Notes: a model not told the origin generated them from the letters alone. A DNA stretch of 64,000 nucleotides from an uncultured Candidatus Saccharibacteria bacterium (GCA_964620955.1 CAZUKH010000001.1:124593-188592); one strand, 5' to 3'. Positions 2,826 to 42,841 are shown, numbered from the stretch's first letter. Translations and numbers: made by a program.

Positions 2826-5471
2826 ATGTATATTCAAAGACGATTTTTGTTATTAACTGTTATTCTCCTGACTATTGCAAGCTTTGCACTTGTGATTACT
2901 GGGCCTGCATATGCTCAGGAAGAGCCAACAAGCAGCCTCGATGTGACTTCTTTTCTTACAAGCCAAGAATTTAGTGTTGACATAAACCCTGATGCTCTAG
3001 CATATGCATTTGAGTGGAATAAAGGTGGTTATTTTGAGTTTAAGACGAATGGCTCTGTGAATGAATACGAACATATCGAAGAGATGACTGATGGGCCTGA
3101 GAACTTATCAAACAAATCCATATCGGAACTTTACTATATTAATGAAAGTGAAACACAAATATTTATTAAAAACTCTTCTGCATCGGAACTTAAAATAAAA
3201 TGGGTTTGGTTAACTCAGCCCCAAAAAGACAAGGGAGATCAAAGGATATCCTCAAATAACCTAACTAACCCTACCCACGTTAACCTGGATTCAGGCGCTA
3301 ATTATTCAACACTTCCGATTGTTTCACGAAGCATGTGGGGAGCCAACGAAGAATCCTCTTCTGTTTGGCCACCAGAGTATAAAGCAGTAGAAAGATTTAT
3401 TATTCATCATACAGTCATTACCAATTCCAACTTCATGACTGCAGTTCAGCTTATTTATAACTACCATACTTATACAAATGGATGGGGTGATATAGGCTAC
3501 AATTATTTAATTGACCCTAATGGGGTAATTTATGAAGGCAGGAAAGGTGGAGATAATGCTATAGGTGCGCATGCATATATGCAAAATGGACGCTCAATGG
3601 GTATTTCGTTTATTGGAGACTTTTCTTATGTTCTTCCATCTAATACTGCACTTGCAAGTTTTAGAAGTTTTATTGCCGAAAAGTCCATTTTGCATGGTAT
3701 ACCACTTGTTTGGGGGGAAACAGTTTTTGGCCATAGAGATATGCCGGAGAATTCGACAGCATGTCCTGGGAACGCCTTTTATGCAGCACTCCCAACAATT
3801 ATTTCCGAAGCAAATTCAGTTAGAGCCAATTTATCTTCCGGAACTTTGAGTCAGGCATATGCAAGTATGATTAACAATACTAATAATTACTACGATAACA
3901 GGTTAACTATTAAATTTGTGAATTCTCAATTAACTGAGAACGAAGCTTTAGCCTTACTCCCCAAAAACAGTGGCATTACTGATGTTGATTATGCTAATGG
4001 AGAAGCATTTATTACATTTGAAAGCTTTACATGGTATGGAGGCGAATACTTTGATGATACTCTAGATAGAGTAAAATTCGCCTATTTGATTTTTCTTTTA
4101 GACCCAAACATTCAAAGTATTGAACTAGCTCCTGAAGGGCCTTATGATTATGGAGATGCACCCGAAACCTATTCAACATCTACTGCATCACATTTAAGAA
4201 CAGCACAAAGCCCTTACTTTGGAAGCGGGGTTGATGGTGAAGAGTCTGCTTTGGTAGATACAGCTGCTACAGGAGATGATAATAGAAGAACCACAGCCCT
4301 TGCAGATGATGAAGATGGCGTAAGTTACACAGAGCTTAGAGGAGGGTTTACAGGTAATATAACTCTTTCGATTGGAGCTGCTGGGTATGTAAAGCTATGG
4401 GTAGATTTTGGCAATGATGGTACTTTTGCAGAGGCTTCAGACAAAGTATACGACGGCTACCTTGAAATAGGACTTCATGAAGTTGATGTAGCTGTACCTC
4501 AAACAATAAGCCAAGGAACCACATTTGCTAGAGCGAGAATAAGCAGTCAAAATACATTTAGTTACAATGATGCAGCTATTGATGGGGAGGTTGAAGATAT
4601 TAGAGTTTGGATTCATGAATGGTCAGACCTTTTTGACTCTGTGGGAAATACAAATCAGCCTGTTGCTACTCAAAAGTTTGGAGACAAATACTTCCAGGTG
4701 CTTTCGTCTAATACTTGGCCATACGTGATTTATGTTAGAAACTCAAGTGACGGACATAACTGGACTCAGTGGAGTGCTGAGTTAAACGGCTACAGTCACA
4801 GAGAACCATCACTAGCAATATTCCAGAATAGGCTTTATTTGTCGGTTTCAGGGACTGATAATAGAATTTATACCAAATCTATGGACATGGGTGGTACATG
4901 GGATAGCAAATGGGCCGAGACTGGCGGGACAACACTTGAAGGTGTTGGAATTGGAAGTGGGAACCTAAATGGTACAGAAATGCTTTTTCAAATAGTTAAG
5001 AGTAGTAACGATACAAATATTTACGTTCGACAAACTAAAGATGGAGTTTTTGATTACAATTCACCCGAAGAAAAGTGGAAAATCTTTGGAGGATTTACTA
5101 ATAAAAAGCCATCCTTATCTTCAATTAATGGAAAGTTAATTGCCACAGTAGCAGGTACGGATAGTAGAATTTACTTACGAACATCGATAGATGGTGTTAA
5201 CTGGTCTAACTGGGCTGAAAAGGGTGGGCTTACTTTTGAGGCGCCAGTAATTAGTTTAGAAAATAATCTTCTTTACCAAACTGTTAAAAGCATTGAAGAC
5301 AATTCTTTGTATTATAGGTCTACTTCCGACCTGCAAAACTGGACACCCTGGAAACAAATAAAAATCAACGCAGATAAGGCAGGGGCAATCATAATTTCTA
5401 ATAGCGTTCTTGGCATATACGTGCCTTCGGGCAGCTTGCTAAGGTATTCTACTTCGGTAAAATCTCTTTAG
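2826..5471 (+). CDS. Secreted multidomain protein: signal peptide + N-acetylmuramoyl-L-alanine amidase (PGRP/Amidase_2) + GEVED domain + BNR/sialidase-like beta-propeller repeats
   Basis: Signal peptide MYIQRRFLLLTVILLTIASFALVITGPAYAQ. Amidase_2 signatures: IIHHT, DIGYNYLIDPNGVIYEGR, GAHA, C-terminal ACPG. GEVED signature: YDYGDAPETY ... FGNDGTF. Repeated S-x-D-G-x-x-W motifs (SSDGHNWTQW, SMDMGGTWDSKW, SIDGVNWSNW, STSDLQNWTPW). Confidence 0.8.
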   Translation: MYIQRRFLLLTVILLTIASFALVITGPAYAQEEPTSSLDVTSFLTSQEFSVDINPDALAYAFEWNKGGYFEFKTNGSVNEYEHIEEMTDGPENLSNKSISELYYINESETQIFIKNSSASELKIKWVWLTQPQKDKGDQRISSNNLTNPTHVNLDSGANYSTLPIVSRSMWGANEESSSVWPPEYKAVERFIIHHTVITNSNFMTAVQLIYNYHTYTNGWGDIGYNYLIDPNGVIYEGRKGGDNAIGAHAYMQNGRSMGISFIGDFSYVLPSNTALASFRSFIAEKSILHGIPLVWGETVFGHRDMPENSTACPGNAFYAALPTIISEANSVRANLSSGTLSQAYASMINNTNNYYDNRLTIKFVNSQLTENEALALLPKNSGITDVDYANGEAFITFESFTWYGGEYFDDTLDRVKFAYLIFLLDPNIQSIELAPEGPYDYGDAPETYSTSTASHLRTAQSPYFGSGVDGEESALVDTAATGDDNRRTTALADDEDGVSYTELRGGFTGNITLSIGAAGYVKLWVDFGNDGTFAEASDKVYDGYLEIGLHEVDVAVPQTISQGTTFARARISSQNTFSYNDAAIDGEVEDIRVWIHEWSDLFDSVGNTNQPVATQKFGDKYFQVLSSNTWPYVIYVRNSSDGHNWTQWSAELNGYSHREPSLAIFQNRLYLSVSGTDNRIYTKSMDMGGTWDSKWAETGGTTLEGVGIGSGNLNGTEMLFQIVKSSNDTNIYVRQTKDGVFDYNSPEEKWKIFGGFTNKKPSLSSINGKLIATVAGTDSRIYLRTSIDGVNWSNWAEKGGLTFEAPVISLENNLLYQTVKSIEDNSLYYRSTSDLQNWTPWKQIKINADKAGAIIISNSVLGIYVPSGSLLRYSTSVKSL

Positions 5472-35453: not shown

Positions 35454-38400
35454 ATGTTAAAAGATTTTAATGCAGTAAGAATAACTGTTGCATCACCTCA
35501 GGATATTCTTAACTGGTCTCACGGTGAAATTACTAAGGCAGAGACAATAAACTACCGAACTTTCAGGGCCGAGCCAGGAGGGTTGATGGCCGAAGAAATC
35601 TTTGGCCCTACTAAAGACTTCGAGTGTTACTGTGGAAAGTATAAAAAGATTCGATATAAAGGAATTGTTTGTGATAGATGCGGAGTTGAGGTAACACACA
35701 AAAGAGTAAGAAGAGAAAGAATGGGGCATATTAAACTTAGTGCACCAGTTACACATGTATGGTATGCAAATGGCGTTCCTAACAGACTTGCAGTAATTTT
35801 AGATATTCCTCAAAAAAAACTTGAAACTGTAATCTATTACGCACGATATGTAGTAACAGGAGTAAATGACGATGAACAGCAAAAGGCAATTGAAAGTCTT
35901 AAAGACCTGAAAGCTAACGAAATAAAAGAAATGGATGCAGAGCTTGAAACGAAAATTGTAGAAATCAATAACGAATTTAAAGAAAAAAGATCCGATGCAG
36001 AAAAAGAAAACGCCAAGGATAAAAAGAAATTGAGCCTACAGCTTGAAAGAATAGCGCAAAATGAAAAATCGGAAGTTGCAAGAGTTAAAGCTGCATTCAA
36101 ACAAAGAATGGACAATTTGGATAAAAAGTTTGCTGATTTAAAAAATCTTATAAAAGATATCAAAGTCGGCTTTACCCTATCTGAAGAAGAACATTCGCTA
36201 ATGGAAGAGTATGATTTCTTCTTTTATGATGCTGGCATGGGTGCAGAAGCAATGAAGCAACTTTTAGAAAAACTTAATATTGAAAAAGAACTTGAAGGAC
36301 TTGAAGAAACATTAAAAGCAAGTAAGTCACAGCTAAAAAAATCAAAACTGGTTCAAAGACTGAGAGTACTAAAAGGAATTTTGAAGTCTGGGATCAGGCC
36401 TGAGTGGCTTGTTTTAGATGTTTTACCTGTAATACCACCAGATTTAAGACCAATAATCCAATTGCCTGGAGGAAGATTTGCAACTTATGACTTAAACGAT
36501 CTTTATAGAAGAGTTATTAACAGAAATAACCGATTAAGAAGACTTATTAATCTTGGAGCGCCTGAAATCATTTTGCGAAATGAAAAAAGAATGCTCCAGG
36601 AATCAGTAGATTCGCTTTTAGATAACAATCATAAACCAGGTGCTCCAGCATTAAACACAAGGGGGATGCCTTTCAAATCACTATCTGACATGCTTAGAGG
36701 CAAGCAAGGTAGATTTAGACAAAACCTTCTTGGAAAACGTGTTGACTACTCGGGAAGAGCTGTAATTGTAGCTGGTCCTGACCTTAGGTTTGATCAATGC
36801 GGCTTACCTAAAAATATTGCATTAGAGCTTTTCAGACCTTTTATTATTAGAGAATTAATTGGCAGAGGCCATGCGGCAAACCCAACAAGGGCTAAAGTGA
36901 TTTTTGAAGAAAAAGACACAATTGTATGGGATATTCTTGATGATGTAATAGTTGACAGGCCAGTACTTTTGAATAGGGCTCCATCTTTGCACAGATACTC
37001 AATACTTGCCTTCTACCCTGTTTTAATAGAAGGTAATGCTATTCGCTTACATCCGATGGTTTGCCAAGGTTTCAACGCAGACTTTGATGGAGACCAAATG
37101 GCTGTACATCTTCCATTGTCAGATGCTGCTGTAGTAGAAGTAAAAGAAAGAATGTTCGCTAAAGATAATATGTTGTCGTTAAGAGACGCAACTCCAATAG
37201 TAAACGTTTCTAAAGATATGGCTATGGGAGTTTACTTCCTAACCTTAATGCAAGGTAGTGAAAAAGAGGCGAAAAGAGCCTTTGGTTCGACTGAAGAACT
37301 TTTAACTGCATATAACATTGGAACTATAAAATTTTACGAGCCTATAAAACTGTTGAGAGATGAAAAGGTTTTAACAACCACAGTTGGTAGAGTAATTTTT
37401 AATAGCATATTGCCTGAAGGATTTGAATTTATAAACAAAGCTATGAGCAAATCCGATGTGTCAAAGCTATCCGCAAGAATTTTTAGAGACTATGGACGTG
37501 AAGATGCAATAAAATCACTTGATAGCATTAAAGACCTCGGTTTCGAATATGCTACAAAGCTTGGGTTCTCAATTTCAATGGGCGAGTTCCGATTTGGCGC
37601 AGGCGAAATCACAGGTAAAGAACTATCAGACTTTGATCAAAAAGAAAAAGAGTTGCTAAACGAATACTATGACGGAATGATTACCCGCAATGAGTTAAAA
37701 AGACTAAAACGAGATTTATGGTCAGAATTTACCGACAAAATTCAAGAAGAAGTTTGGGAAAAAGCAAGAGTGGCTGATGCATCTTGGAACCTTGTGGAGC
37801 TTAATAATTCGGGAGCAGTTCCAGTTAGCTCATGGGTTAAACAAATTTCCGGAGTTAGAGGTTCTGTATCAAATATGGATGGTGAGGTTGTAGGATTACC
37901 TTTAAGAAACAACTATGAAAAAGGTTTAAGTAACATTGAATACTTTGTAGCAGCTAAAGCTGTAAGAAAATCATTTGCTGATGTTGCGCTTAAAACAGCT
38001 GAGTCTGGTTACCTTACAAGAAGGCTGGTTGATGTTTCACAAGACTTAATTACTAAAGTAGAAGACTGTGGCACACAGGAAGGGTTAATAGTAAAAAGAG
38101 ACGCGCCAAGACAAATGGCTTTTGAGAACAGAATAAGGGGTAGATTTACTACAAAAGCTGTTAAAGATGCAAAAGGAAAAGTCTTGGTAGATAAGGGTGA
38201 ACCAATAACAGTAGACTTGGCTTCAAAAATTGCGGCAGATGAGTCAATTACTGAAGTTGAACTAAGAAGCCCTCTTAAATGTAGAGTGTCACATGGGTTG
38301 TGCCAAAAATGTTATGGATTTGATAATGGCACAGGAGAAATAGTCAAAATTGGAGAAGCCGTAGGTATTATTGCTGCCCAGGCACTTGGAGAACCAACAA

Positions 38401-39401
38401 CTCAGTTAACTCTTAAAAGTAAATCTGACGCTAGAGCATCAAAATCTGACGTTACACAAGGTTTGCCAAGAGTAGAAGAACTTTTAGAAGCAAGGACACC
38501 AAAAGCTCTGGCTCAGCTTGCTGACGCTGATGGGACAGTAAGTATAATTGAAGACAAAAAGCATATTATTATTAGGATAAATGCAAAGCAAACCTTTGAA
38601 AAAGAATATAAATTAGTTGAAACAGACACTGTAACAGTAAAATCGGGAGCTAAAGTTGAACAGGGCCAAACAATCATTGTTAAGTCCGACAAAACAGAAA
38701 TTCGTGCATCTTCAGATGGAAAGGTGAAAATTGCAGATGGTAAAGTAATAATTGAAACTGTTAAAAATGTTGAGTATGAAAGATATGCGAATGATCCATC
38801 TGACATCATTGTTAAAGATGGTGCTAAAGTCAAAAAAGGTGATGAGCTAACACATGGATCTATTGATCCTAAAGAGCTTGCACGGTTAAGAAGTATTGAT
38901 GAAGCGCAAGCATACATAATTGCTGGGGTACAGTCTGTATATGGCATTCAAGGTCTTGAAGTTGATGACAGGCACCTTGAAATAGTTGCGCGACAAATGT
39001 CACGTTATGCTTTAATTAACGATAATGGTGGCAGTCAAGAGTTCCTTCCTGGAGATTACGCTGACATTATTGATATTGAAGTTGAAAACCTTGAACTTGA
39101 AAAAGCAGGTAAATCCCTAATTAAATACGAAAGAGTGCTATTAGGTGTTACAAATTCGTCAATAAGGACAGAAAGCTTCTTATCCGCAGCTTCATTTGAA
39201 CAGCAGGTTAGAGTTTTGACAGATGCAGCCTTGATTGGCAAGGTAGATCACTTGAGAGGACTAAAAGAGAATGTTATAATCGGCAGGCCAGTTCCTTTAG
39301 GAAAAATGCTTATAGAAAAGAATCCTGAAGAAATTGAAGTGGTTGAAGAGCAAATTAAGGTAATTGAAGAATCAGAAGGTCTAGTTAAAGCAGATTTATA
39401 A
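35454..39401 (+). CDS. rpoC: DNA-directed RNA polymerase subunit beta-prime, with a lineage-specific coiled-coil insertion near the N-terminus
   Basis: Zn-binding CxxC...CxxC, catalytic NADFDGDQM, VLPVIPPDLRP, RFRQNLLGKRVDYSGR. About 100 extra charged residues between the YVVTG and GMGAEA blocks. Confidence 0.95.
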   Translation: MLKDFNAVRITVASPQDILNWSHGEITKAETINYRTFRAEPGGLMAEEIFGPTKDFECYCGKYKKIRYKGIVCDRCGVEVTHKRVRRERMGHIKLSAPVTHVWYANGVPNRLAVILDIPQKKLETVIYYARYVVTGVNDDEQQKAIESLKDLKANEIKEMDAELETKIVEINNEFKEKRSDAEKENAKDKKKLSLQLERIAQNEKSEVARVKAAFKQRMDNLDKKFADLKNLIKDIKVGFTLSEEEHSLMEEYDFFFYDAGMGAEAMKQLLEKLNIEKELEGLEETLKASKSQLKKSKLVQRLRVLKGILKSGIRPEWLVLDVLPVIPPDLRPIIQLPGGRFATYDLNDLYRRVINRNNRLRRLINLGAPEIILRNEKRMLQESVDSLLDNNHKPGAPALNTRGMPFKSLSDMLRGKQGRFRQNLLGKRVDYSGRAVIVAGPDLRFDQCGLPKNIALELFRPFIIRELIGRGHAANPTRAKVIFEEKDTIVWDILDDVIVDRPVLLNRAPSLHRYSILAFYPVLIEGNAIRLHPMVCQGFNADFDGDQMAVHLPLSDAAVVEVKERMFAKDNMLSLRDATPIVNVSKDMAMGVYFLTLMQGSEKEAKRAFGSTEELLTAYNIGTIKFYEPIKLLRDEKVLTTTVGRVIFNSILPEGFEFINKAMSKSDVSKLSARIFRDYGREDAIKSLDSIKDLGFEYATKLGFSISMGEFRFGAGEITGKELSDFDQKEKELLNEYYDGMITRNELKRLKRDLWSEFTDKIQEEVWEKARVADASWNLVELNNSGAVPVSSWVKQISGVRGSVSNMDGEVVGLPLRNNYEKGLSNIEYFVAAKAVRKSFADVALKTAESGYLTRRLVDVSQDLITKVEDCGTQEGLIVKRDAPRQMAFENRIRGRFTTKAVKDAKGKVLVDKGEPITVDLASKIAADESITEVELRSPLKCRVSHGLCQKCYGFDNGTGEIVKIGEAVGIIAAQALGEPTTQLTLKSKSDARASKSDVTQGLPRVEELLEARTPKALAQLADADGTVSIIEDKKHIIIRINAKQTFEKEYKLVETDTVTVKSGAKVEQGQTIIVKSDKTEIRASSDGKVKIADGKVIIETVKNVEYERYANDPSDIIVKDGAKVKKGDELTHGSIDPKELARLRSIDEAQAYIIAGVQSVYGIQGLEVDDRHLEIVARQMSRYALINDNGGSQEFLPGDYADIIDIEVENLELEKAGKSLIKYERVLLGVTNSSIRTESFLSAASFEQQVRVLTDAALIGKVDHLRGLKENVIIGRPVPLGKMLIEKNPEEIEVVEEQIKVIEESEGLVKADL

Positions 39402-39415
39402 CTTATAGTTAAAAA

Positions 39416-39862
39416 ATGGCAAGAATATCACAATTAGTAAGAAAAGGTAGAAATCCTAAAAAGAAAATTACAAGATTTAAAGGGCTCTTAATGCCTCAAA
39501 AATCCAAGTACAAGGCGTTTAGGTTTAACTACAATGGAGTTAACAATGCTTTTTTTGAAAAACCAAATCCTTTAAAAAGAGGGGTTTGTGTTTCGGTAAA
39601 AACAATGACTCCAAGAAAACCAAACTCTGCATTACGAAAAATTGCAAGAGTTAGGCTTTCTAACAAACAAGTAATTACAGCCTACATACCAGGCGAGGGA
39701 CATAACCTTCAAGAGCACTCTGTTGTGCTTGTGCAAGCTGGTGGCAGGCCGGACTTACCTGGAGTTAGATATAGAGTAGTTAGAGGGGTTTACGATGCTG
39801 GTCCTGTTGAAGCAAGAAGACAAGGAAGAAGCAAGTACGGAAATAAAAAGCCAAAGAAGTAA
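39416..39862 (+). CDS. rpsL: 30S ribosomal protein S12 (148 aa, with N-terminal insertion)
   Basis: [50 protein letters not shown]. About 24 aa inserted between KKK and PLKRGVC relative to typical 124-aa S12. Confidence 0.9.
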
Positions 39863-39874
39863 CAATAAAACATG

Positions 39875-39908
39875 ACAGCGCGGGACAATGGCTATTGTCC
39901 CGCGCTGG
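39875..39908 (+). other. Perfect 14-bp GC-rich inverted repeat with a 4-nt loop (CAGCGCGGGACAAT-GGCT-ATTGTCCCGCGCTG) in the rpsL-rpsG spacer
   Basis: Seen in sequence. 9 of 14 stem pairs are GC, in an otherwise AT-rich region. Not followed by a U-tract. Confidence 0.6.
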
Positions 39909-39972
39909 AGGAAGTATAAACTTCTATAAAAAAGTATCAGTGAACAAAAGTAATTGATACACTTGAGAAATT

Positions 39973-40001
39973 AAACTCAGTGTAACAACTGAGTTTTTTT
40001 A
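39973..40001 (+). terminator. Putative rho-independent terminator/attenuator-like hairpin (AAACTCAGT-gtaaca-ACTGAGTT followed by TTTTTTT)
   Basis: 8-bp stem plus T7 run between rpsL and rpsG. Stem is AT-rich, so strength is uncertain. Confidence 0.4.
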
Positions 40002-40167
40002 TTGTTCTACCGTAATACCCCTTGTGTAAGCAAGGAGGATGTAGGTGAATAAAAACAGTGCCGAAGGCATCTGATACAACAAAATACCATCCGGCGTAAG
40101 CCAGTGGTAGTTTATTTTTATTTATTAAAATGATACTAACTATTAAAAAGTAGTATCGGAAACTAAA

Positions 40168-40635
40168 ATGAGAGGAAAGCAGTCACCAAAACGAGTTATT
40201 GTAGCCGACGAAGTTTACAATAGCGTAACAGTTTCTAAATTTATAAATTATGTAATGCAAAGCGGTAAAAAAAATGCAGCAAGAAAAGCAGTTTATGGGG
40301 CAATTGAGGAATTAGGACAAAAAACTAAACTAAAGCCTGTTGAAGCTTTAGAAAAAGCAATTGAGAATGTAAAACCAAAAATTGAAGTTAGATCAAGAAG
40401 AGTTGGTGGTTCAAACTACCAGGTTCCTGTTCAAGTACCTGAAAACAGGCAAACAGCTCTTGCTTTTAGGTGGATTATTGACGCTGCAAGGTCTTCAAGA
40501 GGCTCCAGTGAGTTTTACAAAAGTCTTGCTAAAGAGCTTATAGCTGCTCTTAATAATGAAGGAAATGCAATTAAGAAGCGTGACGAGGTGAAGAGAATGG
40601 CAGATGCAAACAAAGCGTTTGCACAATTTGCCTAA
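40168..40635 (+). CDS. rpsG: 30S ribosomal protein S7
   Basis: GKKNAARKAVYGAIE, RRVGGSNYQVPVQV, ALAFRWII, typical uS7. 155 aa. Confidence 0.95.
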   Translation: MRGKQSPKRVIVADEVYNSVTVSKFINYVMQSGKKNAARKAVYGAIEELGQKTKLKPVEALEKAIENVKPKIEVRSRRVGGSNYQVPVQVPENRQTALAFRWIIDAARSSRGSSEFYKSLAKELIAALNNEGNAIKKRDEVKRMADANKAFAQFA

Positions 40636-40674
40636 AACAAATGCTACTTAAACCGGACTATATTATAATAAAGA

Positions 40675-41328
40675 ATGAGGTTTAAGCTTTATTTTGCTGG
40701 TTTCTTATTTACTGTTGTGCTCTACTCTGCTTTTGCATTGTTTTCGACTTCGGAATTTATTGAGTCAATAGTTGCAGGAATTTTTATTCTTTCTACTATT
40801 TTGTTTATTTTCACAAAAGAAGAAAAAGTAGAAAGTGAAGGTATACTTCAAAACCCTAAGGTACATTACTATCAAAATTCAAGAATAAACTATTACGGAT
40901 ACTTTATGGTAGTAGGTGCTTCTTTATGTGCTTTAACGTTTTATGTTGCCTCAACGCGGTTTGAGCTACCTATCGGCTTAGTTTCTTTGTTTTTTTGGCT
41001 CGTTATGATTTCTTTATCAATTATTGTATCTAACTATTTTAATAAAATTTATTTAAAAACTCTTTTAGTTGACTACATTTTAATGTTTTCCGGCACTAGC
41101 TTAAATTTTCGTGAAGTTGAGTTGATTATAGAGTTTTTGCTTCAAAAAGATTCATTAGATGCAAACTTATTAGTTAAGAAATGTAAGTCCAATTTTAAAA
41201 GTGTTTTAAAAGAAGATCTTCACAAAATTATTAATTTATATGTATTTTATGTTAAATCAATAACCACAGGAAACGAGTTAGTATCCGATGAGGTTGCAGT
41301 TTTGAATGAAAAATCAAGAATTAAATAA
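40675..41328 (+). CDS. Hypothetical membrane protein
   Basis: 217 aa with 4 N-terminal TM helices. C-terminal soluble region with no motif. Confidence 0.45.
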   Translation: MRFKLYFAGFLFTVVLYSAFALFSTSEFIESIVAGIFILSTILFIFTKEEKVESEGILQNPKVHYYQNSRINYYGYFMVVGASLCALTFYVASTRFELPIGLVSLFFWLVMISLSIIVSNYFNKIYLKTLLVDYILMFSGTSLNFREVELIIEFLLQKDSLDANLLVKKCKSNFKSVLKEDLHKIINLYVFYVKSITTGNELVSDEVAVLNEKSRIK

Positions 41329-41668
41329 ACAAGTTTTAATTGATCATTATAAAAGTCCTTGCAATTACGGCAAGCCTAAATGGAAACCTGACTTTATTGC
41401 TGCTAAGGAAAATACCCTATGCGGCGATGCAGTTAAAATCTTTATTAAAATTGAAAACAGTTTTATTACAAAAGTCAGTTTTACTGCAGAGGGTTGCTCT
41501 ATCTGCATCGCCGCAACATCCTTACTTCTTCAAAACATTAAAGGCAAAAGTCTTGATTTCGTTAAACAGCTTGATGCCGAGTATGTTTTGCGCCTTGTAA
41601 AAGTAGATTTAAATCCTGAAAGAAAAAAATGTGCACTTTTAGGGTTTGATGCGCTTAAGGAAATTTAA
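41306..41668 (+). CDS. SufU/IscU-like Fe-S cluster assembly scaffold (NifU N-terminal domain family)
   Basis: LIDHYKSPCNYG, three conserved Cys (LCGDAVKIF; AEGCSICIAATS; KKCALLGFDALK), typical U-type scaffold spacing. Confidence 0.7.
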   Translation: MKNQELNKQVLIDHYKSPCNYGKPKWKPDFIAAKENTLCGDAVKIFIKIENSFITKVSFTAEGCSICIAATSLLLQNIKGKSLDFVKQLDAEYVLRLVKVDLNPERKKCALLGFDALKEI

Positions 41669-42841
41669 GGCAGTATAGGTTATTATCGAAAACGGGGCTG
41701 CTATTAGCAAAAAAGCTCTTACTACTGCTTCTTCATTTCCTTCAAAAGTTACAAGTAACACAACTAAAAACATAAATCCAGTAACCCTTCCTACAAGGTA
41801 GGTGGTTTCTATTAGCACATTCATTTCTAGCCCTGACTCGGTAGAATCTTCTGCTAAAAGATTTTCCCGTATTTTGTAATCGCAATCAGCCTTAACTGTA
41901 TCTACAAGAGTTTTATTAAAAGCTAATGCTATAGACCTAGCTACTAGTAAAGGTATACTCCATACTAACGCTAAAGCTGCGGTAAGCGCTGAATATATAA
42001 TTGAAACCCAATAGCCGTTTAGCACTCTACTTTTATCTTCTAGTACTCTTTCATACAATCCTGCTGCTGCTGCAAAGAGTCCAATAAACCCTAACAAAAC
42101 CCCTACTTGAAATTCATTTTGTATTAACAAGTAAGGAATAATCAAAAATAAGGCAAAAAACAATGTAGATTCTATGCTAATTATTAAATGTAAAAACACA
42201 AATCTTTTTATATACTTTTTGCGAAGAATTTTTGAAATCTCTGAAAATCTAAGCTTTGTTCTTGGTTGTTTATTGTAGCGAAACGGAGCAAATATTAATA
42301 CAATATAAACAGCAATGCATAAAAGAGTAAGGCTTCGAAAATCGTTTGTGACCGTAAGCAATGAGCCTGCAAGTACTGGTAAGATTATGCTTAAAACCTG
42401 GTCTATGCTACCAGAAAGCAGTATAGTAGAACTTCTTTCATTACCCTGGATTTCTCTTAAACCAATTGAATGATGTGGTGCAAAAGCAAATCCTCTTGAA
42501 ATTCCTCTAATAAGCGCAATTATTGGGTAAATCACGGCTATTTCGTTTAATGATAACGTAACAAAAATAAATACTGCCGCTTGAGCAATAAAAGATATGC
42601 GGTATGTCAAAAGATAGCCAATCTTATCAACATACATAGTTGCGATTAAAAACCCTATCCAAATACCTGCAAACCACAAAACCGCATCTATCATTAACAC
42701 ATATAGTTTTCCGGTAATTTGATAAAGCGTTATGTAATAAAAAGACCAAACTAAAATTTCAGATATGAGCAATCCTGTTTTAAAAGTAATGAATTGATAA
42801 ACCAGTTGTAAATGGTTTTTTGTTTGTAAAAGCCTGTTCAT
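41639..42841 (-). CDS. MFS-type transporter (12 TM)
   Basis: 400 aa with ~12 hydrophobic helices in a 6+6 arrangement and a central cytoplasmic loop rich in R/K. Confidence 0.6.
   Translation of the reverse strand: MNRLLQTKNHLQLVYQFITFKTGLLISEILVWSFYYITLYQITGKLYVLMIDAVLWFAGIWIGFLIATMYVDKIGYLLTYRISFIAQAAVFIFVTLSLNEIAVIYPIIALIRGISRGFAFAPHHSIGLREIQGNERSSTILLSGSIDQVLSIILPVLAGSLLTVTNDFRSLTLLCIAVYIVLIFAPFRYNKQPRTKLRFSEISKILRKKYIKRFVFLHLIISIESTLFFALFLIIPYLLIQNEFQVGVLLGFIGLFAAAAGLYERVLEDKSRVLNGYWVSIIYSALTAALALVWSIPLLVARSIALAFNKTLVDTVKADCDYKIRENLLAEDSTESGLEMNVLIETTYLVGRVTGFMFLVVLLVTFEGNEEAVVRAFLLIAAPFSIITYTALNFLKRIKP

Follow-up and report, generated by a model that had tools for sequence, protein, structure and literature searches.

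The gene at positions 39,416–39,862 of the window, the whole stretch of 64,000 nucleotides that was analyzed, is very probably a functional rpsL of a Dojkabacteria-like (CPR/Patescibacteria) bacterium and encodes a lineage-typical uS12. The protein is a bacterial uS12 of the long-form subgroup carrying a natural K43R-type residue of a known sort. Both its long N-terminus and its unusual residues at the "streptomycin" positions are genuine, but such features are typical of the lineage or already known as natural variants of low cost. The identity of this uS12, its alignment, its conservation and its polymorphism are matters of direct observation.

Identity of the rpsL gene and its genomic context

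The gene lies in a ribosomal protein–RNA polymerase locus with the following members:

35454..39401, plus strand: rpoC, RNA polymerase beta' subunit, 1315 aa (ORF; the orthologues of the relatives carry RNA_pol_Rpb1)
39416..39862, plus strand: rpsL, bacterial uS12, 148 aa and stop (ORF, PF00164, TIGR00981)
40168..40635, plus strand: rpsG, uS7, 155 aa (PF00177, E=1.8e-55)

The reading frame runs from an ATG to a stop over 148 codons, and its product matches the protein sequence quoted earlier. It was recognized by PF00164 with E=3.6e-32 (110.8 bits against a cutoff of 22.3) and by the NCBIfam equivalog TIGR00981 (rpsL_bact) with 168.2 bits (cutoff 112.95), the match spanning profile positions 1–124 of 124; the score on the archaeal/eukaryotic model TIGR00982 remained below cutoff (47.9 versus 140.2). 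The best PDB sequence matches were Firmicutes and Mycoplasma uS12 (E about 1e-41), and NCBI-derived data already contain a 100% identical protein (P0001). No second S12 ORF was seen within the 64-kb window. The decoding-centre loops are kept as TPRKPNSA and PDLPGVRY, with Asp89, Pro91 and Gly92 unchanged, and the substitutions within these loops fall at positions 43, 83, 84 and 86–88 (E. coli numbering).

Relatives were taken from the best 120 matches in a collection of 5.8 billion proteins, 119 of which were used as S12 proteins (146–156 aa, 70–82% identical). The one left out, P0018 (228 aa), is a fused or duplicated S12; like P0121 (211 aa) and P0122 (177 aa), it holds two S12 core domains in one ORF, and all three are probably assembly or gene-calling chimeras rather than true fusions. 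Organism names were attached to eight of the best 120 matches, namely seven 'Candidatus Dojkabacteria bacterium' and one Doudnabacteria, and the clade name used here is based on the source labels of these few relatives.

Two outgroup samples were employed. The first comprises the S12 proteins of 80 genomes (Firmicutes, Chloroflexota, Paceibacterota, Peregrinibacteria and Saccharibacteria), contains no Dojkabacteria and does not delimit the clade; the genome pattern scan behind it was dominated by universally conserved NLQEHSVV-type patterns. The second consists of the 150 best representatives of clusters at 50% identity; most of these S12s are fused, mis-started or of odd length, and the sample can serve only to gauge which residues occur, and how often, at positions 43 and 88.

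In the window, rpsL starts 14 nt past rpoC, and rpsG follows 305 nt further on. The order rpoC–rpsL–rpsG was found in all eight retrieved loci, which carry the genes of seven relatives, and L083/L084 and L085/L086 share with the window the longer order rpoC–rpsL–rpsG–hypothetical protein (~210 aa)–NifU_N. Because of the names of the relatives and this shared gene order, we infer that the window sequence is from a Dojkabacteria-like CPR genome.

The region after rpsG (40636–42841) contains a 217-aa ORF without a Pfam match, then a NifU_N-like ORF and, on the minus strand, an ORF of 400 aa. Unlike in the classical str operon, fusA and tuf are absent after the rpsG of the window. The 401-aa counterpart of the minus-strand ORF in L085 has an MFS_1 Pfam match, recorded in that locus only.

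An N-terminal extension in two layers

The window uS12 exceeds E. coli S12 (124 aa) by 24 aa, and the whole excess lies before the RGVC motif (54 versus 30 residues), as the earlier note had described for this 148-aa protein. All 119 relatives have exactly 54 residues ahead of RGVC, a length that occurs in none of the S12s of the 80 outgroup genomes. Three segments can be distinguished within it:

39416..39460, plus strand: residues 1–15, a short conserved helix and basic stretch at the N-terminus of the uS12 extension (aligns with the E. coli, B. subtilis and T. thermophilus N-termini)
39461..39493, plus strand: residues 16–26, the clade-specific extra 11 residues (single BLASTP gap against B. 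subtilis S12)
39521..39559, plus strand: residues ~36–48, the ~13-residue internal insert, boundaries approximate (ungapped against B. subtilis NKGYNSFKKEHTN)

In the first segment, S5, Q6 and R12 are invariant across the clade. The BLASTP alignment with B. subtilis S12 (138 aa) is continuous save for one 11-residue gap, which falls on window residues 16–26. Window residues 27–59 align without interruption with B. subtilis residues 16–48, and the segment from F37 onward is placed on the B. subtilis insert Y-N-S-F-K-K-E-H-T-N-V; F37 and N40 of the ~13-residue insert are invariant in the clade. This insert is missing from E. coli and T. thermophilus S12, whereas the S12s of all 80 outgroup genomes possess it and lack the extra 11 residues. 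It is known to be shared by Tenericutes, Chloroflexus, some Firmicutes and almost all CPR (Tsurumaki 2022, PMC9297842), and the corresponding uS12 indel has featured in rooting debates (PMC3224940).

On these alignments, the 24 extra residues can be divided into ~13 that belong to the known insert and ~11 (K16–M26, with a conserved R-F-K-G-L) that are clade-specific. The proposal of a lineage-specific S12 'tail' is thus retained for the latter part, the 11 aa extra with respect to B. subtilis, and given up for the rest: over half of the insertion is a known uS12 region (PMC9297842), and a wholly new segment of 24–32 aa is not what the alignments display. The extra segment is under purifying selection, with F/Y21 and K22 kept in all 119 relatives, L24 in 113, G23 in 112 and R20 in 106.

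AlphaFold2 modeling on the 119-sequence alignment gave a mean pLDDT of 78, with residues 11–50 at 85–88. Hairpins were predicted at residues 18–27 (strands 18–21 and 24–27; the block of residues 16–26 at pLDDT 85–87) and 37–48, so that both layers of the insert are predicted to form beta-hairpins. The best Foldseek matches of the model were Firmicutes and Mycoplasma uS12 chains, with TM scores of 0.64–0.73. In E. coli, the S12 extension reaches from the solvent side through to the interface and decoding centre, contacts platform and body rRNA as well as S8 and S17, and affects assembly (PMC3923127). In the window uS12 the extension is enlarged in two layers, a shared insert of ~13 residues and a segment of ~11 residues fixed in the clade, and the extra hairpins may offer further surface for binding rRNA or proteins within the small subunit.

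Tandem duplication is a possible, though rather doubtful, origin of the 11 residues. Unit 17–27 (G-x-V-R-F-K-G-L-x-F-S) would then be a copy of unit 28–38 (E-x-T-K-Y-K-A-L-H-F-N), which holds the K-x-(P/K)-A-L motif. The repeat period of 11 equals the extra length, an [RK][FY]K[GA]L pattern recurs at 11-residue spacing, and the two units reach a family-averaged BLOSUM62 score of 16.3 (z=4.2), rank 7 of 8128 11-mer pairs. However, six unrelated 11-mer pairs of this basic-rich protein score the same or higher, for example 7–17 versus 105–115, so that the resemblance does not stand out from the background set by composition, and the units differ in their predicted conformation, a hairpin in one case and a helical turn in the other.

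Lys/Arg polymorphism at position 43

Both decoding-centre loops could be aligned without gaps:

39608..39631, plus strand: TPRKPNSA loop, residues 65–72, with Arg at E. coli K43 (K42 in mature numbering; ungapped BLASTP)
39734..39763, plus strand: second decoding-centre loop, residues 107–116, corresponding to E. coli 83–92 (ungapped alignments)

The BLASTP alignment with E. coli S12 is ungapped between residues 52–147 and 28–123, at 64% identity, and places window R67 (codon AGA, 39614–39616) on E. coli K43; HMMER alignments to solved uS12 chains agree with this residue placement. The Arg that the earlier note had put at position 43 therefore belongs there.

Of the 119 relatives, 64 carry Lys at position 43, 54 carry Arg and one carries Met. 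As to what the relatives share, the 54-residue N-terminal region is common to all of them, but R43, found in 54 of 119, is not fixed. A neighbour-joining tree of the 119 sequences, built without the position-43 column and noisy for so short a protein, requires at least ~20 changes at this position, compared with ~40 when the states are shuffled. On this evidence, position 43 is best described as a recurrently toggling K/R polymorphism and not as a fixed clade character. The AAA and AGA codons are a single transition apart, and since K43R is also of low cost, neutral K/R toggling is expected.

Outside the clade, 43R was detected in four of the 80 genomes (including one Lysinibacillus and two Paceibacterota) and in 2 of 148 cluster representatives. 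A 2026 preprint (bioRxiv 10.64898/2026.06.09.731231) that screened >20,000 species reports naturally occurring rpsL resistance variants in ~7%, with 359 species carrying 43R and 830 carrying 88R, and a low cost of K43R and K88R. In agreement with the preprint, 43R outside the clade is uncommon but natural. Most Rickettsia rpsL sequences were dropped from that survey as too divergent from the reference, and Patescibacteria are unmentioned in its text.

A PDB sequence of Staphylococcus-like uS12, u139666 (8bh6_l, 8bh7, 9rvc, 9t4r), has TPRKPNSA with R43 together with GGRVRDLPG with R88; experimental ribosome structures with Arg43 therefore exist and can be used for modelling.

We regard it as unlikely that R43 is kept by repeated positive selection from producers of streptomycin-like aminoglycosides in the habitat, the toggling then being local adaptation rather than drift. 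The at least ~20 independent K/R changes among the 119 relatives would fit such selection, as would the frequency of 43R, 45% in the clade against 2/148 representatives and 4/80 genomes bacteria-wide. TM7x, another CPR organism, was first cultivated by selection for streptomycin resistance (PMC8694215). Against this, K43R costs little or nothing in several species, and the K/R tree, built from so short a protein, is noisy.

A second loop with Pro88

Window P112 (codon CCG, 39749–39751) aligns on E. coli K88, and window D113 corresponds to Asp89. The second loop is as long as the E. coli IRGGRVKDLPG and differs from it by R83Q, G84A, R86G, V87R and K88P. The earlier note rightly saw that the K88 region is altered; the Lys is replaced by Pro. 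Read against GGRVKDLPG, as in that note, GGRPDLPG would be one residue short, which the unchanged loop length contradicts. This gapped reading was rejected on the ungapped BLASTP and HMMER alignments and on the clade consensus (K/R)AG(R/K)(K/R)PDLPG; the 'GGR' of the window loop is a coincidence.

The clade pattern of the loop is strongly conserved: among the 119 relatives, Pro88 occurs in 119, Arg/Lys87 in 114 and Ala84 in 113, and Asp89 is invariant. Eleven of the 119 show variation at position 91, while Pro91-Gly92 is kept in the window protein. The exact loop of the window is unique in this set, with one basic residue in positions 83–88 compared with 2–4 elsewhere, and such an atypical loop (Q83, G86) could have a functional effect of its own. 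No AG(R/K)(K/R)PD loop was found outside the clade among the 80 genomes and 150 representatives, and Pro88 occurs there sporadically (Dehalogenimonas L005, P0125, P0126, P0265).

The clade has thus fixed Ala84 and Pro88 and has its basic side chain at position 87 instead, where Lys/Arg probably compensates for the charge lost at 88. Together, the 11-residue segment and the Ala84/basic-87/Pro88 loop are modest lineage-level variation, of which we found no description.

Some Paceibacterota-type S12s (L022 and L052, match at 3001–3408; P0177 and P0242) have R43, in TPRKPNSA or in TPRKPHSA, along with a second loop shortened to GRVKDI(N/G)V(R/N/Q)Y. Missing from this loop is the Pro-Gly pair of DLPGVRY, known as the classical positions of streptomycin dependence, and it departs further than the window loop does.

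Streptomycin sensitivity and decoding accuracy

K42R (mature numbering, identical to K43R) causes high-level resistance to streptomycin in several species: Arg no longer forms the hydrogen bonds to the drug but retains the salt bridge to A913 of h27 (PMC2916820). It is the only S12 streptomycin-resistance change described there as non-restrictive, a property ascribed to the retained h27 salt bridge, and some other changes of K42 (Ala, Thr) are strongly restrictive. If it acts as the K43R alleles do, Arg43 would remove the streptomycin hydrogen bonds and keep the h27 salt bridge, leading to poor drug sensitivity and normal, non-restrictive accuracy. Since K43R breaks the drug hydrogen bonds and gives resistance elsewhere, reduced streptomycin sensitivity of the organism due to Arg43 is plausible and reasonable as a prediction.

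Pro88 is a different case. The earlier note counted the changes at both positions as textbook resistance changes; this applies to K43R, which gives resistance (PMC2916820), but Pro88 is without a documented phenotype in the literature consulted and does not figure with 88R, 88E and 87Q/G, the resistance alleles named in the available parts of PMC2916820 and the preprint (bioRxiv 10.64898/2026.06.09.731231). A Pfam search of ten other ORFs of the window for RimO, RsmG and aminoglycoside-modifying enzymes detected none of them; the matches among these ten were FtsW, an aldehyde dehydrogenase, a glycosyltransferase, a methyltransferase and HisRS.

A broader scenario, which we consider quite unlikely, is a clade-wide remodelling of the small subunit. 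The Pro88/basic-87/Ala84 loop would confer insensitivity to the streptomycin class with either Lys43 or Arg43, and the new hairpin element at residues 16–26 would replace contacts lost in the reduced CPR 30S (shortened h6, h10 and h17 region).

It is less likely still, and in our view improbable, that R43 and the altered K88 loop are a lineage adaptation jointly giving a naturally restrictive (hyperaccurate), streptomycin-insensitive decoding centre. Both classical positions are indeed non-canonical, Pro88 is fixed in the clade, and substitutions at 42 and 87 (mature) are tied to streptomycin resistance, with the Ala and Thr changes of K42 strongly restrictive. However, K42R is the S12 resistance change reported as non-restrictive (PMC2916820), and on this ground the 'naturally restrictive' or hyperaccurate centre proposed in the earlier note is not supported. 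Moreover, Lys is present at position 43 in 64 of 119 close relatives, Pro88 is not one of the resistance alleles named in the available text of either source, and a basic residue occupies the neighbouring position 87 in 114 of 119. No substitution of a type known to be restrictive (for example K42A/T/N or bulky changes of P90) occurs in the window uS12, which has Arg at 43 and keeps the P90 equivalent.

A sequencing, assembly or gene-calling artefact, or a decaying pseudogene, as the source of the extra residues and the odd loop is of negligible probability and was rejected, given an intact frame with a stop, a conserved start (M1 in 116 of 119 relatives), the same 54-residue N-terminal region in the independent assemblies of all 119, strong residue conservation within the insert and a score above the TIGR00981 equivalog cutoff.

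A structured spacer between rpsL and rpsG

The spacer that follows rpsL contains several RNA elements:

39863..40167, plus strand: structured rpsL–rpsG spacer, 305 nt (RNA fold z=-10.2)
39934–39960, plus strand: conserved hairpin GTATCA-GTGAACAAAAGTAAT-TGATAC (loop conservation and stem covariation)
39973–40003, plus strand: terminator-like hairpin and T-run (terminator-like site in the sequence)

The predicted fold of the spacer has an MFE of -100.6 kcal/mol, compared with -56.6 +/- 4.3 for shuffles, and includes a GC-rich 14-bp hairpin at 39876–39907, although the spacer belongs to an AT-rich genome. A long rpsL–rpsG spacer is present in all eight Dojkabacteria-type loci (109–394 nt). The loop of the hairpin at 39934–39960 is nearly invariant (G-W-GAAYAAHAGUA-W-U), and its stem covaries across six loci: seven of eight pairs change on both sides, and 91.7% of cells are paired, against at most 44% in slid controls. 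The terminator-like hairpin has an equivalent in the spacers of the relatives, with a different stem sequence.

The terminator-like hairpin suggests a conserved terminator or attenuator separating rpsL and rpsG, two classical str operon genes. The spacer hairpin may be a ribosomal-protein leader or attenuator, a candidate autoregulatory element for S7 or S12. An Rfam search of the whole 64-kb window found no family at gathering threshold, tRNA, rRNA and riboswitch families included, and on the spacer it returned one chance NRON match only.

Significance

The window uS12 is a concrete case of CPR ribosomal proteins growing while rRNAs shrink, with little weight beyond the description of the lineage; the clade-fixed Pro88 and the 11-residue hairpin open no long-standing question. 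The classical S12 streptomycin-resistance positions are naturally variable in Patescibacteria, and this variability could guide antibiotic-based enrichment of Dojkabacteria, similar to the streptomycin selection used for TM7x. For surveys of "intrinsic" rpsL resistance, it is important that alignments be correct and that divergent S12s be covered.

Comparison with known systems

The closest known counterpart is the long-form uS12 exemplified by B. subtilis RpsL (138 aa; PDB 3j9w, 9fy1, 7ooc). It is the same OB-fold protein and has the same ~13-residue insert between the 'PAL' motif (K-x-P-A-L) and P-x-K-R-G-V-C; to this form, the window protein and its 119 relatives add residues 16–26 (R-F-K-G-L), Ala84 and Pro88.

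Within CPR, the Saccharibacteria S12 of the 80-genome sample (L015) carries the canonical KK and VKD residues, unlike the window protein. Streptomycin resistance of the saccharibacterium TM7x is reportedly attributed to a base change in 16S rRNA and not to S12. TM7x, from another CPR lineage, tolerates streptomycin through its translation apparatus, as is predicted for the window organism, and was cultivated by streptomycin-resistance selection (PMC8694215).

Selected K43R alleles of M. smegmatis, M. tuberculosis and E. coli, which are natural in Wolbachia and Ehrlichia, have the same Arg in the same TP(R)KPNSA loop, one AAA-to-AGA transition away from Lys. In contrast to these, Arg43 of the window, known from sequence alone, is a wild-type polymorphism of an uncultured lineage and stands beside a remodelled 83–88 loop.

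Natural residues other than Lys at 87/88 (Gln in human mitochondrial S12, Gly in the cytoplasmic protein, 88R in Planctomycetia and other bacteria) provide the parallel for the second loop, as the Lys is likewise lost in whole lineages. In PMC2916820 and the preprint (bioRxiv 10.64898/2026.06.09.731231), such loss is linked to lower streptomycin or aminoglycoside susceptibility. The window clade differs from these lineages in having Pro88, with Lys/Arg shifted to position 87.
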